IMG/VR virus record: IMGVR_UViG_3300037466_002758
DNA length: 64,000 nt
Direction: 5' to 3' (one strand)
From: an uncultured virus (IMG/VR IMGVR_UViG_3300037466_002758)
Taxonomy: Duplodnaviria; Heunggongvirae; Uroviricota; Caudoviricetes
Positions 37,269-50,672 of the stretch are shown here, one piece after another. The notes beneath the pieces were generated by a model. That model saw only the letters and a list, made by a program, of their open reading frames with translations. It searched no databases and was not told the origin of the DNA. The position numbers and the translations under genes are program-made. Position 1 is the first letter of the stretch. The number at the start of each line of letters is the position of its first letter.

Positions 37269-37719
37269 GGTGCGTCTCCTTTTGAGGGGGCGCCAGGTTG
37301 ATCGTGATACTGAAGCCGGGGCCTGCCTGCACGGCCGCGCTGGGCTTGGGCTCGAGGTCCGCGAATTTCGTTGTGGTCTTGTAGGCCTCGAGGAGCTGCG
37401 GGATGGTGGTGTCGGAACCCATCGCCGCGAGAAAAAGCTTTTTGCCGATCTCCTCCGCGTACATCGCGTTCTGGAGACGGAAGGTGAACCCTTGCTGCTT
37501 GAGCTCGGCCTTCTTGGCGTTCACCTGGACCATGAACGGATCCCAGGCGCACAGTGCTGCGAACTGCTCGGGTGTGATGCCGTGCTGCTTGGCGACCTCG
37601 ACCGGCTCCTCCATCCCGATCGCAAGCTTGAGCACCAGCTCTGCCGGGATGTCGATAACGGGGGGTGTGACTTGCGGTGGTCCCTCCCTGTAGTCGGCGA
37701 AGTGGTCCAGGTCCTCCAT
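37117..37719 (-). CDS. putative terminase small subunit
   Basis: Upstream of terL; helical N-terminus and GFSITINL beta-strand typical of TerS. Confidence 0.55.
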   Translation of the reverse strand: MEDLDHFADYREGPPQVTPPVIDIPAELVLKLAIGMEEPVEVAKQHGITPEQFAALCAWDPFMVQVNAKKAELKQQGFTFRLQNAMYAEEIGKKLFLAAMGSDTTIPQLLEAYKTTTKFADLEPKPSAAVQAGPGFSITINLAPPQKETHREPVVIEQGASAPGPVQENPQQVPRAAGELGPVEPGRASGLQPGLPARAG

Positions 37720-37934
37720 CAGTGGTCGGTGAAGGGCAGCGTGAGCTGGGTGGTCTCGAGCTCCGCATTGGCGGCCTGGACTCGCTCGATGGCCTCGTGG
37801 ATGGGCTTCGCGACTCGCAGGTAGTCGTACACGGCACGCCGGATCTGCTCCGAGACCGAGATGCCGGTCTGCCGCTGGATCAGCTTCATCGCCGCGATCT
37901 GCTGGTCGTCCATGAAGAAGTTGTGGCGTTTCAT
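37719..37934 (-). CDS. ribbon-helix-helix (CopG-like) regulator
   Basis: MKRHNFFM beta-strand followed by TGISVSEQIRRAV. Confidence 0.8.
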   Translation of the reverse strand: MKRHNFFMDDQQIAAMKLIQRQTGISVSEQIRRAVYDYLRVAKPIHEAIERVQAANAELETTQLTLPFTDH

Positions 37935-38259: not shown

Positions 38260-38424
38260 TCACTTCACCTTGCCGCCGCGCTTGTAGCCGGCCACCGGGG
38301 GAGCGTCGAAGTCGCCGTCGGCGTCGGGCTTGCGGCCCTTGGGCGGAGCCTTCTTCACGGCCATCGGGGCCTTCTTGGCGAAGGGGTTCGGCTTCTTGCC
38401 GGCGGATTTCGGGGGGAATGCCAC
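38260..38424 (-). CDS. 54-aa Lys/Pro-rich protein ending YKRGGKVK
   Basis: Strong RBS GAGGAGGTGA; GTG start at 38424; not in the supplied ORF track. Confidence 0.7.
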   Translation of the reverse strand: MAFPPKSAGKKPNPFAKKAPMAVKKAPPKGRKPDADGDFDAPPVAGYKRGGKVK

Positions 38425-38465
38425 GGATCACCTCCTCTCGTTGTGTAGACGGAGGGACGTTAGCA

Positions 38466-38481
38466 GGTTCCACGTGGAACG
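38466..38481. promoter_or_regulatory. chromosomal-type parS palindrome
   Basis: GGTTCCACGTGGAACG; perfect 14-bp palindrome GTTCCACGTGGAAC. Confidence 0.7.
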
Positions 38482-38637
38482 TGATTGTGGATCAGGGAAA
38501 AATGTGTTAGCGCTTCGGTGCCGGTCGTAGGGTAATGATGCGTGTGTATAGTGAAAAGTGCTTGGTGCTGTGAGCGTCCTGGGTGACAGTGGCGCCGCCC
38601 CCTCGACCCCTTGGTCCCATCGCCCCTCCCCCCTAGT

Positions 38638-39012
38638 GGACGGTGCGGCAGAGCATCCCGGCCGTCCCCCAAGCCCCGGTGGACGTCGCGGGCCCGATAT
38701 CGCTCGGGTAGCGGCAGCGAAGCTGGCGGAAGGCGGCGGGTGAGTGCGTCCCGCGCGGGTAGCGATCCAAAGGAGCCCGACGTAACCGGCTAGGCCGCGC
38801 AGAGCGCGCGGTGACCGCGCCGGTGAGATCCCCCGGAGGGTAAGGCATGCGCCGCGTCGCGGGCGGCCTGAGAGCGCCGGGGGACGCGTGGGAAAGAATC
38901 CCGCGCGAAGCGAAACCTCCTTTTGGAATCGACCGGCAAAGCCGCGCGATCGCATCAAGTGGCCCATAGCCGCGAGATTCCGTTTTCTTAGGCGGCCCGG
39001 GCACGGAAAGGA
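38638..39012 (+). ncRNA. candidate large structured RNA or 5' leader
   Basis: At least six identifiable stems in an ORF-poor, GC-rich interval. Confidence 0.5.
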
Positions 39013-39018
39013 TTTTCC

Positions 39019-39624
39019 ATGTTCAAGCTCGAAACCGCCGACAGCATCAAGAAGCAAATCGTGGGGATCGGACGTGCCGGCGTCCGGCTGGTGGCCGCCA
39101 TCCAGGTTGCCGCCGTGCAGGTCATCGGTCACGCCGTGAAGCACGGAGACATCACGCTCGCCCAGTCGCTCTGCGAGAACGTGCCCAAGCACCACAAAGC
39201 CGTCCTCGTCGCGTTCCTGGAGAAGTTCGGCCCGTTCAAGTTCGACGCCGACAAGAAGGCTCTGGTCTTCTACCGCGACAACTCGGAGCTCAAGCTGGCC
39301 AGCATCAACGTGCCCGGCGGCGAGCTCACGCAGGAGTACGTGGACAAGCTCCCGAAGTGGGAGAGCGCGAAGAAGCCGCAAGAGGTGAAGTCGATGTACG
39401 ACGTGGAGGCCGAAGCCAGCCGCTTCCTCGAGCGCATGCGCAAGCAAACGTCCTCGGGCGTCGAGGTGAAGCACCGCAAGCTTCTCGACGTGCTCATGGT
39501 GGCGTACAACCGCTACGTTGCCGCGCTCAGCATCGACGAGACGAACATCTCCCCCGAGATGGACGCGGGCACGCCGGAGGGTCAAGCCGAGCTTACCAAG
39601 CTGGCCGATCTCAAAGCCGCCTAA
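39019..39624 (+). CDS. early hypothetical protein
   Basis: 201 aa; strongly host-like codons; AAGGA RBS. Confidence 0.8.
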   Translation: MFKLETADSIKKQIVGIGRAGVRLVAAIQVAAVQVIGHAVKHGDITLAQSLCENVPKHHKAVLVAFLEKFGPFKFDADKKALVFYRDNSELKLASINVPGGELTQEYVDKLPKWESAKKPQEVKSMYDVEAEASRFLERMRKQTSSGVEVKHRKLLDVLMVAYNRYVAALSIDETNISPEMDAGTPEGQAELTKLADLKAA

Positions 39625-39704
39625 TACCGCAACAAGCCACACACACTCAACTCACTTACCACTGAGTGCCTCGGCCGCCTAAGAAAAATAACCAAGGAGG
39701 TGCG

Positions 39705-39878
39705 ATGGGCAAGCGCAACAGAAAGAACCCGACACCGGGTTCGATGGATGAGCTCGCCGAGCGTGTGATCTTCAAGGGCAAATCCCGGGACAAGCTCCAG
39801 GGGTTTTACAGAACCCCCGGCAAGCGCCGCGTGTTTGTGCCGCTAGGCACCAGGACGCGTTTCTTCAGGCCGGCGTAA
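39705..39878 (+). CDS. small basic protein
   Basis: AAGGAGG RBS; ATG at 39705. Confidence 0.6.
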   Translation: MGKRNRKNPTPGSMDELAERVIFKGKSRDKLQGFYRTPGKRRVFVPLGTRTRFFRPA

Positions 39879-39879
39879 T

Positions 39880-40405
39880 TAAATGTGCGAGACACTTGCT
39901 TATATCTGTCGAAAAAAACTAGATATATAGATACTGATAAGTAGCCGCTAGATACCGGCGGGGCGGAAAAACCCTTTGGAACCAACCTCTTACTACTACT
40001 ACTACTACTTATATTTATATATATTTGTATATCTTGCAATTAGCGGTCATTTTGGATGCCAGAATATTTGCGTTTATTAGATATTTAGATATTTAGTAAC
40101 TATATATCTAGATATTTGATATCTAAATATCTAATAACCCATAGAATCACGCTCGTCCTCCGGGATTTTTTCGCTAAATCGCTAATTACTGCTAAATCAA
40201 AGAGTTACCTAATTAGATATTTAGTGACTATATACAAGTAGCTCCAAACACCGACAGATACAAATCCAGAAAAATTAGATATAAGATATCTTGTGGGTAT
40301 GTGTTGACAACAATTCTGCACCTGCTAACATGTATCTAGTTACTAAATATCTAAATATCTAGTAACTAAATATCTAAATATCTAGTAACTAAATATCTAA
40401 TATCT
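39880..40405. repeat. AT-rich iteron region, probable replication origin or operator
   Basis: Many TAAATATCTA/TAGATATTTA units; 19-bp perfect inverted repeat (40074-40092 and 40119-40137); 23-bp tandem repeats (40342-40387); (TAC)6 at 39991-40008; IHF consensus at 40195-40207. Confidence 0.75.
40304..40331 (+). promoter_or_regulatory. sigma70-like promoter
   Basis: TTGACA (40304-40309) and extended -10 TGcTAACAT, which overlaps a GCTAAC box. Confidence 0.6.
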
Positions 40406-40769: not shown

Positions 40770-40938
40770 CCACTCACTCAACTTACTCACTAAAGGAGCC
40801 ATTCATGCCCAGCTTGAATCCGAGCACCTACAGCGTGAACGAGATGGCGCTCTCTATGTATATATCCGTATGGATCGGTCTGGCTCTGTGCGGCAAGCTG
40901 GTCGTGGGTGAAGCGCTCTTCGGCTACGAGTTTCCGGA

Positions 40939-45493: not shown

Positions 45494-46546
45494 ATGCGTT
45501 ACAGCGACATTTCGACTGCCGTCCAGACCCTCTTCGGCGAGACCAACCAGATCGTGCCCTTCACGATCGGCAAGCCTGGCGGCGGCAAGTCGTTCCTCAA
45601 CCGCGAGATCGCGAAGGCCCTTTTCGCGGCGCACGGCGAGGAGATGATCGAGTTCAACGCGGCCGACCCGCGCACCTGGGAAGTCGCCAACTATGTCGAG
45701 TTCAACGCGTCGCTGCGCGACCCGGTGGACATCATGGGTACGCCCAACAACGACGGCGCCGTGACCGACTGGAAGCCGCCGCGCGAGATCTACTGCTTGC
45801 GCAAGGGCACCAAGGGCATCAAGGTGTTCAACCTGGAAGAGGTCTCGGACGCGACTGTGGCGATGCAGAACGCGCTGTGCGGGGTTATCTACGACCGGCG
45901 CGCCGGTCAGATGCAGCTCTCCGAGAAGCTCTACATCCTGGCTTCCGGCAACCGCACCGAGGATAAGTCGGGTGCCAACCGGCTCACCAGCAAGTTCGCC
46001 AACCGCTGCGTCTTCTTCGACTTCCACGAGAACGTCGACGACTGGAGCCAGTGGGCGCTCGAGAGTGGTGTCGACCACAGGCTCGTGCAGTTCATCCGCT
46101 TCCGGCCTAACCTTCTCTCGGACTTCGACCCGAATCGGCGAGCGAATCCGACGCCGAGGACCTGGGCCTGGGTGAGCAAGATCCCGCCCAAGCTGCCCAC
46201 GGAGATTTACTTCGGCACGATCGCGGGGCTCGTGGGTGACGGTGCTGCCGCCGAGTACACCGGCTACCTCAAGGTGTACATGGACCTCCCGGATATCGAG
46301 GAGATCATCATGAAGCCGGCGACTACGAAGGTCCCGAAAGATCCGGCCACGCTCTACGCGCTGACGGGTGCCGTGGCGCACAAGCTGAGCAAGGACAACA
46401 TCGACCGCGTGATGGAGTACGTCGAGCGCATGCCCGCCGAGTTCCAGGTGATGTGCATGAAGGACGCGCTGCAGCTGAAGCCCGAGATCAAGGGCACGAA
46501 GGGCTTCGTCAAGTTCGCGGTGAAGAACAGCAACCTGATGATCTGA
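45494..46546 (+). CDS. MoxR/AAA_5-type AAA+ ATPase
   Basis: Walker A GKPGGGKS; Walker B variant VFNLEE; sensor ASGNR; arginine finger FANR; PTPRTW. Confidence 0.88.
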   Translation: MRYSDISTAVQTLFGETNQIVPFTIGKPGGGKSFLNREIAKALFAAHGEEMIEFNAADPRTWEVANYVEFNASLRDPVDIMGTPNNDGAVTDWKPPREIYCLRKGTKGIKVFNLEEVSDATVAMQNALCGVIYDRRAGQMQLSEKLYILASGNRTEDKSGANRLTSKFANRCVFFDFHENVDDWSQWALESGVDHRLVQFIRFRPNLLSDFDPNRRANPTPRTWAWVSKIPPKLPTEIYFGTIAGLVGDGAAAEYTGYLKVYMDLPDIEEIIMKPATTKVPKDPATLYALTGAVAHKLSKDNIDRVMEYVERMPAEFQVMCMKDALQLKPEIKGTKGFVKFAVKNSNLMI

Positions 46547-48325: not shown

Positions 48326-49216
48326 ATGAATCTCCCACAACTGAACGAGAAGGCCATGAAGGTGAAGCTCACCATGAGAAGGGCGAATCTCACCCGCCGT
48401 GACGAGCAGGCCGAGATATACGTGCAGCAACAGCTCGACGATCAGTCGCTCGTCGTGAATTCGAAACTCTTCCGCGACAAGACGAATCCGATCAACCAGA
48501 TCATGACGGCGGTCTCGGAGGTGTACAGCTATCATAAAGCGCACACGATCCCGTTCGTGGACAAGGGTCCGAGGCTTCTGCCCAACGAGATGTACTTCGA
48601 GTACACCGCCGCGATGCGTGAGCGGATCCAGCGCGTGGATGATCTCCTGGCCACGCACATGCCGATGTATGACCTCTACGTGAACCAGGACATCGCGTGG
48701 AGGTGCGAACAGGCGCGTCTCGGCAACAAGCAGGCCCGCGCGTCCGTTAGCGACTACCCAACGGCGGAAGAGTTCAGGAGCCGTATGGGGTTCGAGCTCA
48801 GGTTCGAACCTCTCCCGGACAAGTCACACTTCCTCTTCGACATCAACGAGGAAGATATGGCGGCGTTCGAGCATTCCATCCAGGAGCAGGCTGCGATTGC
48901 TCACAACCACCGCATCGTGCAGATGCTCGAGCCGCTCAAGCACCTGGCCGAGAAACTTGAGAAGCCCATCGGTACCGAGGGAAGCATCTTCCGCGATAGT
49001 GCGATCAAGAACATCAAGGAAGGCATCGCGAAGGCGAAGAAGCTCACCGTTGTGCCCACGCCCGAGCTGGAAGAGCTGATCCTCGAGCTCGAGCGTACGA
49101 TCGAGACGTGGAGCGCCACCAAGGAGTGGCTGCGCGAAAGCCCCATCAATCGCGAAGCGGCAGCCAAGCAGCTCGGCCAGCTCGCCCAGAAGATGGGCTC
49201 GTTCATGGTGCAGTGA
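48326..49216 (+). CDS. DUF3150-like protein
   Basis: 296 aa; HTIPFVDKGPRLLP, DYPTAEEF, IFRDS; typical neighbour of AAA/VWA pairs. Confidence 0.6.
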   Translation: MNLPQLNEKAMKVKLTMRRANLTRRDEQAEIYVQQQLDDQSLVVNSKLFRDKTNPINQIMTAVSEVYSYHKAHTIPFVDKGPRLLPNEMYFEYTAAMRERIQRVDDLLATHMPMYDLYVNQDIAWRCEQARLGNKQARASVSDYPTAEEFRSRMGFELRFEPLPDKSHFLFDINEEDMAAFEHSIQEQAAIAHNHRIVQMLEPLKHLAEKLEKPIGTEGSIFRDSAIKNIKEGIAKAKKLTVVPTPELEELILELERTIETWSATKEWLRESPINREAAAKQLGQLAQKMGSFMVQ

Positions 49217-49529: not shown

Positions 49530-50672
49530 TTGAACAAGTTTACCAAGCTCGAGAGGGCCAAGACGCAGTTGATCCTCGACCACCCGTTCGTCGCCTCGAT
49601 CCTGGCCAGGCGCACGATGATCGCCCGCAAGGACATCCCCACGATGGGCATCGATAAACGTGGTCAGATCTACTACAACGAGGACTGGGTGGAGAACCTG
49701 TCCGTCCCGCAGCTGGTGTTCGCCCTGGCCCACGAGACGCTTCACGTCGCAATGCAGCACTTCAGCCGCGTGGGCGAGCGCAACAAGCAGAAGTGGAACA
49801 TCGCCGGCGACGCGGTCATCAACGACACGCTCATCAACGCCAGCATCGGCGAGTTCATCACCGAGGGCGTGAACATGCCGGGCTCGAAGGACAAGTCCAC
49901 CGAGGACGTCTACGCGTCGCTCCCCGACCCGCCCAATGGCGGCAAGGGGGCGAGCAAGGGCATCGGCGGGACTGGCGATGACCTGCTGGATGAGGGCAGT
50001 CCCATGAGCGACGCCGAGCAGAAGGAGATCGAGGCACGCGTGCGCGTGGAAGTGGCCGAGGCCATGCAGGCAGCCAAGGCCAGGGGGAAGCTCCCCGGTG
50101 TCCTCGAGAAATTCGCGACCGACATCATCAACGTGAAGACGCCCTGGTACGACATCCTCGAGCGTTTCATGGTGAGCTTCACCGCCGGCGAGACTAGCTG
50201 GAAGCGGCCGAACCGCCGCTACAACCACTGCTACCTGCCGGCCGTGGGCAAGGTGGCGCGCATGGGCAAGATCGGGATGCTGACCGACATCTCAGGTTCG
50301 ATCTCGCAGCCGGAAATCATGCACTACAACGGGCACATGAAGCGGATTATCGAAATGTGCATGCCCGAGGGTGTGTACCTGGCCTACTGTGACACGAGTG
50401 TCCAGCACGAGGATGAGTACGGCAGTGAGGAGCTCGATGACGTCCAGGTCAAGTTCTACTCGGGTGGTGGTACGGACATGGTCGCGGGTCTCGACCACAT
50501 GGCCGAGACGGGTCACGAGCTGGATGTCGTCGTGGTGCTGACCGACGGCTACACGCCCTTCCCCACGGGTAAGCACTATCCGTGGCCGGTGATCTGGTGC
50601 ATCTCGAGCGACGTGACGGCGCCGGAGGAGTGCGGCGAGACGGTCCACTTCGAGATGGAACGGGTGCACTGA
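49530..50672 (+). CDS. DUF2201-type HExxH metallopeptidase plus VWA domain protein
   Basis: LAHETLH; WNIAGDAVIN; SWKRPNRR; MIDAS residues DISGS, GGGTD and LTDG. Confidence 0.88.
   Translation: MNKFTKLERAKTQLILDHPFVASILARRTMIARKDIPTMGIDKRGQIYYNEDWVENLSVPQLVFALAHETLHVAMQHFSRVGERNKQKWNIAGDAVINDTLINASIGEFITEGVNMPGSKDKSTEDVYASLPDPPNGGKGASKGIGGTGDDLLDEGSPMSDAEQKEIEARVRVEVAEAMQAAKARGKLPGVLEKFATDIINVKTPWYDILERFMVSFTAGETSWKRPNRRYNHCYLPAVGKVARMGKIGMLTDISGSISQPEIMHYNGHMKRIIEMCMPEGVYLAYCDTSVQHEDEYGSEELDDVQVKFYSGGGTDMVAGLDHMAETGHELDVVVVLTDGYTPFPTGKHYPWPVIWCISSDVTAPEECGETVHFEMERVH

Follow-up and report, generated by a model that had tools for sequence, protein, structure and literature searches.

A non-coding gap between two gene arms

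Does the non-coding gap ahead of the early genes of this uncultured phage encode a structured RNA, and if it does, which parts of the RNA are conserved and how might they act? The 64,000 nt of DNA analysed here, referred to as the window, represent nearly the whole of a phage genome of about 65 kb (longest contig 65,130 nt), in which genes for terminase, a major head protein, integrase, family A DNA polymerase, primase and helicase are found. No RNA polymerase domain was detected in the 17 window proteins scanned, including the virion protein of 2385 aa. The phage is an integrase-bearing, podovirus-like phage of about 65 kb without a recognisable RNA polymerase of its own. Its DNA was present in soil and rhizosphere sequencing runs; contigs of 4 of the 11 runs were compared with the window, and no substitutions were listed.

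The late arm of the genome runs leftward and the early arm rightward. The region 38638-39012 lies in the non-coding gap that separates them, and is best explained as a leader at the 5' end of the first early transcript. A scan with the sigma-70 consensus revealed no promoter upstream of the leader. The motif at the 5' boundary of the leader is common to relatives, and GTGTGTAT/GTATGTAT is found at most 520 nt upstream of motif B (see below) in 18 of 26 loci. The contig L001, which is from the same phage in another sample, stops at 38619, and a contig of run X6 runs across 38441-39545, i.e. past 38619; a physical genome end at about 38620 is suggestive only. The features of the locus are as follows.

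38542..38633, no strand: conserved DNA motifs between the late and early arms, candidate packaging/promoter region, comprising GTGTGTAT (38542-49), CCCCTTGGTCC (38607-17) and a C-tract (38623-33)
38638..38667, + strand: domain A, a 5' hairpin, probably near the leader start (covariation)
38668..38914, + strand: GC-rich middle of the leader, sequence not conserved (fold of the window only)
38915..38922, + strand: 5' strand of P0 (anti-Shine-Dalgarno), predicted to pair with 39694-39701
38925..38981, + strand: motif B, with outer stem, internal loop, short stems and terminal loop; almost certainly a new RNA family
38983..39004, + strand: 5' arm of helix C, also the U-rich tract directly 3' of B
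39005..39012, + strand: RBS of ORF 39019, GGAAAGGA, the same in the related locus L005
39019..39624, + strand: first early gene, 201 aa, phrog_1448 family, inside the loop of helix C
39625..39665, + strand: C/A-rich linker, core CACTCAACTYACT
39666..39687, + strand: 3' arm of helix C, candidate RNase III site
39694..39701, + strand: Shine-Dalgarno (SD) sequence of the small ORF, also the 3' strand of P0
39705..39878, + strand: small basic ORF, 57 aa, 28% K+R, candidate RNA-binding partner of B

On the late side of the gap, a perfect 14-bp palindrome, GTTCCACGTGGAAC (38467-38480), is present upstream of the first late gene and is a candidate operator; a ribbon-helix-helix gene was noted at 37719-37934. 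The small late ORF 38260-38424 contains a 21-bp unit (window 38371-38412), of which one extra copy is found in L001:221-262.

Base pairing in the 375-nt region

The earlier note regarded 38638-39012 as a large, densely base-paired element of about 375 nt and proposed a comparison of its folding energy with dinucleotide-shuffled controls. The results showed that the energy equals that of the shuffles (MFE z -0.31 on the + strand and +0.37 on the - strand). Perfect stems of at least 6 bp numbered 38, against 36.3±6.1 in 40 dinucleotide shuffles, and those of at least 8 bp numbered 3, against 3.05±1.7. On energy alone the finding would fail; the comparison with relatives rescues part of it.

All eight pairings that had been named are present in the letters. 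Their pair probabilities were calculated for two transcripts, 38638-39012 and 38638-39735, and are given below in this order. GGACGG/CCGTCC (38638-43/38662-67) reached 0.91/0.53 and is supported by covariation; GGAATC/GATTCC (38925-30/38976-81), with 0/0.96, forms the base of the conserved motif B. Four stems are seen in the window sequence alone: 38676-88/38778-89 and 38699-704/38761-66, which have probabilities of 0/0, and the pairs TCCCCCGG/CCGGGGGA (38829-36/38877-84) and CGCGTGGGA/TCCCGCGCG (38885-93/38899-907), both with 0.98/0.98. The proposed CGGC-AAA-GCCG hairpin (38934-44) has 0.09/0.04 and is contradicted by the homologues, in which GCAAA is one side of an internal loop. The long-range pairing of CCAAAGGAG with CTCCTTTTGG (38767-75/38917-26) holds in the short transcript (0.68-0.96), but it has a probability of 0 in the long one and is rare in relatives. 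For TTCCGT and the RBS of ORF 39019, no pairing is predicted (0/0).

A search with Rfam 15 gave no match in the window, none in 38400-39100 at E<=10 and none in 12 homologous loci at E<=1, while 11 other loci gave only two tRNAs; this agrees with an RNA not described before. ARAGORN found no tRNA or tmRNA gene in the window and hence no tRNA-like domain. Alignment by blastn of the region, or of the junction of a relative, against 50,697 phage records gave chance matches only. Collection of homologues showed that domain A and motif B covary, and that the middle 250 nt align with no relative. Thus the idea of an undescribed structured phage RNA stands for hairpin A and motif B and is unsupported for the rest: only the two ends of the 375-nt region are supported. 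On the other side, the predicted element extends past the 375 nt, with B as one arm of a three-way junction; a 22-bp duplex (38983-39004/39666-39687) and the pairing of 38915-22 with the SD 39694-701 had been overlooked.

Domain A and the middle of the leader

Domain A is carried by the window and four relatives only, i.e. by 5 of 26 loci. All 5 carriers covary, with 50 of 50 cells paired and 4 of 10 pairs changed on both sides, and the score was reached by 2 of 500 shuffles. A search of IMG/VR with the pattern of domain A gave 26 matches, of which three are carriers already in the set; the match in L259 adjoins a C tract.

The middle of the leader contains two locally stable hairpins in the window, 38829-38884 and 38885-38907, and an SD-like decoy (38767-38775) which, in this phage only, holds the anti-SD strand in the predicted nascent fold. 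The sole further locus collected for the window's own clade, L005, begins inside B. In the leaders of L099, L165, L171, L318, L321, L338, L379 and L381, a common small hairpin, GCG(T)GAAAUAACG, which we take to be boxB-like, replaces domain A; it lies 190-315 nt upstream of B, and in L165 and L171 it occurs without B.

Motif B is conserved in 26 loci

By terminase alignment, 80 viral and 11 genome loci were collected, in 10 of which a relative of ORF 39019 is divergent from terminase, as in the window. The leaders of 10 relatives have two motifs in common with the window. Motif B was first seen in six syntenic loci; a model built from 10 sequences then found a seventh, L143, which scored 33 bits although it was outside the model. 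The set was enlarged by two RNA-only pattern scans of IMG/VR. The first pattern gave 59 matches, 8 of them with long stems, and the second gave 111; the model was run on 72 of the 80 matches listed. Scores were 42-71 bits for the matches with long stems, apart from one at 28, and at most 26 bits for the others, and 12 further B loci were obtained at 42-58 bits. Repeats of the same contig were left out, as were L292, L317, L355, L359, L362, L373 and L374, which are identical or nearly so, and L005, which is cut inside B; 26 distinct loci were kept.

In the window, B is 57 nt long and consists of an outer stem, the internal loop GCAAA (38936-40)/CCAUAG (38964-69), short stems and the terminal loop UCGCA (38950-54). 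The consensus is a hairpin of 57-65 nt with the internal loop GCAAA/CCAUAR and the loop UCRNA. Across the 26 loci, 95.3% of 386 cells are paired and 14 of 15 pairs are changed on both sides. The score of 0.87 compares with 0.22±0.03 for shuffled alignments, none of 500 shuffles reached it, and slid controls gave at most 0.19. G-U or U-G pairs number 28 and A-C or C-A pairs 4, which favours an RNA read on the + strand. Because the alignment had been fitted to the model and the loop letters were prescribed by the search patterns, the invariance of the loops is overstated; stem pairing was not prescribed. These data establish B as a hairpin with a fixed internal loop and pentaloop, formed by RNA of the + strand, and leave us nearly certain that its structure defines a new RNA family, one that is well supported and belongs to a widespread group of uncultured podovirus-like phages.

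A gene of the phrog_1448 family starts 48-394 nt downstream of B in 25 of the 26 loci; L200 has B without a recognisable phrog_1448 gene. B is also present in a complete record of 64.5 kb without this terminase family. Conversely, the gene is present and B was not detected in L094, L165 and L171, and B was not found in any of the five loci of cultured T7-like podoviruses carrying the gene. Among 41 terminase-related genomes or records there was one weak match to B (16.6 bits) and two matches to the gene, never together; in 9 near-complete virus records the gene was not found, and neither was B, apart from this match of 16.6 bits.

Our literature searches brought up no description of motif B. 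Six supplement files of PMC10690425, other than files 1, 2 and 4, held no match, and the motif could stand among the more than 10,000 unnamed candidates of that paper. Two further identifications were rejected: that of GCAAA as the loop of a boxB-like hairpin, as its flanks are unpaired in L141 and L142, and a likeness of B to the c-di-GMP-I aptamer or the pistol ribozyme, on topology and by Rfam.

Helix C follows B and may be an RNase III substrate

Helix C of the window is a duplex of 22 bp with one mismatch and one G-U pair, which flanks ORF 39019-39624. Perfect inverted pairs of 15-mers are not rare in the window, in which several others occur. In L005, where the protein is 56% identical, the duplex is found at the same places with compensatory changes. 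The order of B and then C is the same in relatives, in most of which C is a local hairpin. It encloses the phrog_1448 gene in L318, L338, L379 and L381 (21 bp, loop of 602-614 nt) and the small basic ORF in L099 (25 bp) and L383 (29 bp); together with the window and L005, there are 8 loci in which C is a long-range duplex round an ORF. These pairings show that B is followed by a predicted helix, which is either a local hairpin or a duplex of 21-29 bp flanking a whole gene. The junction described below would tolerate a whole gene inside one arm in at least three lineages, and this points to long-range processing of phage mRNA in the manner of rRNA.

The rules for E. coli RNase III comprise a helix of 11 bp with a proximal box (GC, AU/UA, AU) and a distal box (UA/UG) (PMC1540722). 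Against this minimum of at least 11 bp, helix C has 22 bp in the window and 13-29 bp in most relatives, and is shorter in L142 and L143. When these E. coli rules were applied with the box register given in the text of PMC1540722, adjusted to the hairpin that precedes gene 1.1 of T7, both boxes were complete in 10 of the 26 C helices and in 0 of 26 when helices of B or upstream were taken. The full fit was obtained in one of five T7 early hairpins, the one before gene 1.1. The window's own C duplex shows just the proximal box, and conservation of the distal box is uncertain. Eight of the 10 full matches belong to one protein cluster, and 8 of 10 have C-G at position 4 of the proximal box, a catalytic antideterminant in E. 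coli that allows binding and slows cleavage (PMC1540722). We consider it fairly probable that RNase III acts on helix C.

P0 and the three-way junction

Folding of 38876-39735 predicted a three-way junction of B, helix C and P0 with pair probabilities mostly above 0.9, those of P0 being 0.75-1.0. P0 of the window had p 0.02 against 200 shuffles. Compared with its shuffles, the strand 5' of B paired better (p<=0.05) with the SD/AUG that follows C in 12 of the 26 loci and not in 14; the 12 positive loci represent only 4 of 10 protein clusters. Removing the upstream strand raised the unpaired probability of the SD/AUG by more than 0.1 in 15 of 26 loci, and in the 3' fragment alone that a cut in C would leave in this phage, the accessibility of the SD was still low (0.25). 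The predicted role of P0, supported in about half of the loci, is thus to close the junction, the segment 5' of B being base-paired with the SD/AUG that follows C. The translational switch suggested in the earlier note is plausible, but its partner would be the SD of the small ORF 39705, 780 nt downstream, and not the RBS of ORF 39019.

In folds of the growing transcript, B of the nascent window leader is unstable (P 0.01): as long as the transcript ends short of about 39700, CCAAAGGAG (38767-75) captures the pyrimidine strand at the expense of B, and once the second SD is transcribed, P0 and B are predicted to form. As the junction is predicted only after 39705 has been transcribed, ORF 39019 would be translatable first and the small ORF would be born closed. 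Only 2 of 26 loci showed the anti-P0 decoy pairing at p<=0.05, and most relatives have a B that folds on its own; a conserved decoy (anti-anti-SD) switch was accordingly rejected. The timing device may be private to this phage, or the instability may mean decay, the decoy being a sign of a weakened B.

The genes next to the element

The phrog_1448 proteins encoded at B loci are 17-39% identical to the window protein and fall into 10 clusters at 50%; B is thus tied to first early genes across lineages in which the proteins have diverged this far. Twelve close protein relatives (P0002-P0013) have identities of 49-70%. The 201-aa protein was modelled with a pLDDT of 92. It has no Pfam match and no PDB match with E<=0.001 (the best, Z 5.5, is to generic helices), and its structural and sequence relatives are only uncharacterised phage proteins. 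Relatives of phrog_1448 are located near the left end of T7-like phages and are common there.

In many relatives, small K/R-rich ORFs are found before or after the phrog_1448 gene. The 57-aa ORF of the window belongs to no Pfam, PHROG or Atlas family, and an RNA-binding fold was found for neither the 201-aa nor the 57-aa protein. From its linkage to B and by analogy with lambda N, the small basic protein may bind B. The RNA site is linked to two uncharacterised early proteins. The linker core CACTCAACTYACT recurs at 40775 before another RBS; these two exact matches, with 1.7 expected when up to two mismatches are allowed, are not significant alone.

A different conserved leader precedes the phrog_1448 gene in two Higashivirus phages, Ralstonia phage RSB1 (L264:930-1130) and BMB50 (L006:2120-2320). 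It is apparently non-coding, is annotated as a 45-aa ORF1 in RSB1, and is a possible second RNA motif.

A proposed role as a processed, translation-gating early leader

The reading that we prefer, though only tentatively, is that the region is an early leader processed by RNase III and gating translation, in which B is a protein site, like the leader of lambda N. Its conserved core would be the three-way junction of B, C and P0. Host RNase III would bind and cut C, so that the leader is detached; in this phage the cut would also excise the 201-aa gene as its own mRNA, in the manner of T7 early mRNAs and rRNA stems, and in uncut transcripts the gene after C would stay translationally closed. 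The cut pieces of C could stay paired through P0, and release of the leader is therefore not assured. More speculatively, the invariant loops of B might bind a protein, most likely the product of an adjacent gene (the small basic or the phrog_1448 gene), which might stabilise the junction and exert feedback in the way that N acts on its own leader in lambda. A processed, translation-gating phage early leader is a known kind of control; the RNA family itself is new.

Lambda boxB is a hairpin of 15 nt, and in lambda the translational repression of N is tied to RNase III, which is one likeness to the reading preferred here. Another is the layout, an early leader of about 200-300 nt with an RNA site, a long helix and the RBS of a small basic gene. 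In lambda, nutL is located about 200 bp upstream of N, the translation of which is repressed by N/Nus (PMC5725501). The differences are that boxA (GYTCTTTAANA) is absent from 25 of 26 leaders, that of the window among them, and present in one; that B is a hairpin of 57-65 nt with an internal loop, and not a boxB; and that helix C can enclose a whole gene and is joined here by an explicit predicted anti-SD/AUG helix. The small basic ORF downstream (57 aa, 28% K+R) matches no Pfam, PHROG or Atlas family.

The T7 early hairpins used for comparison are presumably the RNase III sites R0.3-R1.3. They start with CAAG, have G-U pairs and often a GCAA loop, and lie just before early RBSs, and the box fit of 10 of the 26 C helices is the same. 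T7 early RNA is cut at five sites (PMC4858673). In contrast to these sites, the helix here is predicted to belong to a three-way junction, of which a separate conserved motif forms another arm, and in 8 loci its strands lie far apart and make a long-range duplex round an ORF. In rRNA processing stems and in intervening sequences that bear ORFs, a long-range duplex round a segment of several hundred nt is cut by RNase III. The present locus is similar in having such a duplex round such a segment, and differs in that the enclosed segment is phage mRNA without rRNA context.

Other readings of the element

The main rival, which is somewhat unlikely and is compatible with the preferred reading, is antitermination or attenuation, in which B binds host RNA polymerase as put does, or an N-like small basic protein, the early transcript is thereby carried through terminators, and C and P0 are secondary. 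The put RNAs of HK022 bind the zinc-binding domain of beta' and suppress termination without protein factors. The putR site lies about 270 nt from the transcript start, and put consists of two stem-loops in about 70 nt (PMC9378689). B resembles put in being a cis RNA of an early leader, in its length of about 60-70 nt and in its bulged stems, and it lies about 290 nt from domain A. A comparison with put by topology, and not by sequence, shows B to be a single long hairpin of about 60 nt, while B and C together are two helices spanning at least 100 nt. The 8 nt just 3' of B include at least 5 U in 12 of 26 loci, compared with 14 of 494 windows taken from the leaders, and a GC hairpin with a U run, resembling a terminator, follows B in L142, L273, L278 and L283; however, the U tract is missing in 14 of 26 loci, and where present it is usually the 5' arm of helix C. 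The absence of B from the five cultured T7-like podovirus loci and the nearby small basic ORFs also fit this rival, although the small ORF is similar to no family. Two boxA-like sequences, GCTCTTTAACA and ATCTTTAACA, are present in the leader of L200 (consensus from PMC5725501), but this is the case in only 1 of 26 leaders.

A further reading, which is unlikely, takes the leader as a discrete non-coding RNA of 300-450 nt that acts in trans; termination after B or RNase III cleavage at C would set it free, and A and B would be its protective ends or active sites. This would suit the bounds of the leader, a 5' hairpin on one side and B with a U tract or a processing helix on the other, and the long non-coding gap kept in all relatives, in which B is about 250-520 nt from the C/G tract; some helices of the middle also covary within the clade of L097, L104, L233 and L109 (four sequences, poor alignment). 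The middle, however, cannot be aligned between clades, and its folding in the window does not surpass that of shuffles; domain A is confined to 5 of 26 loci, and B is always present as a single copy, fixed at one gene position, as would suit a cis element.

A more elaborate combination seems improbable. In it, B would represent a second class of phage RNA that binds RNA polymerase, different in structure from put and without relation to it. It would stay with the host polymerase, suppress termination and carry the 5' arm of C along until, up to 660 nt further on, the 3' arm is transcribed; RNase III would then excise the first gene in the manner of rRNA, leaving the next gene closed at its SD.

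A riboswitch, with B as a small-molecule aptamer controlling the formation of P0, is very unlikely: the invariant internal and terminal loops, the predicted SD-sequestering helix and the alternative fold predicted in the window would suit it, but there is no Rfam match, the anti-P0 pairing is limited to 2 of 26 loci, B is a single hairpin and the downstream genes give no metabolic clue. Least likely is that the inverted repeats act as DNA (in packaging, as an origin or as single-stranded hairpins near a genome end), for, although the element is placed next to the C/G tract where the two arms meet, L001 stops at 38619, several terminase contigs start near G runs and an A+T-rich repeat array lies 900 nt downstream, the 28 G-U against 4 A-C pairs on one strand, the asymmetry of the conserved loops, the targeting of the SD/AUG by P0 and the match of C to RNase III boxes argue against it.

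Other features of the early arm

Just 3' of the small basic ORF, the window contains an A+T-rich array of TAGATATTTAG units in both orientations (39900-40405), with six exact copies and long inverted repeats, which looks like an iteron replication origin; several relatives have A+T-rich stretches after their first genes. In two T7-like phages (L265:1500-1560 and L266:1410-1465), promoters of the TTGACA type precede the first gene and are followed within a few bases by a boxA-like sequence, GCTCTTTA, which also occurs twice in the leader of L200. Genes for an AAA ATPase and a DUF2201 metallopeptidase/vWA protein are located in the early arm (window 45494-46546 and 49530-50672), and a perfect 17-bp inverted repeat, 48361-48377 with 50167-50183, has its halves 1.8 kb apart inside two coding regions. 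The early arm of two relatives, and not that of the window, carries tRNA genes (L099:741-822 and L109:1-82).
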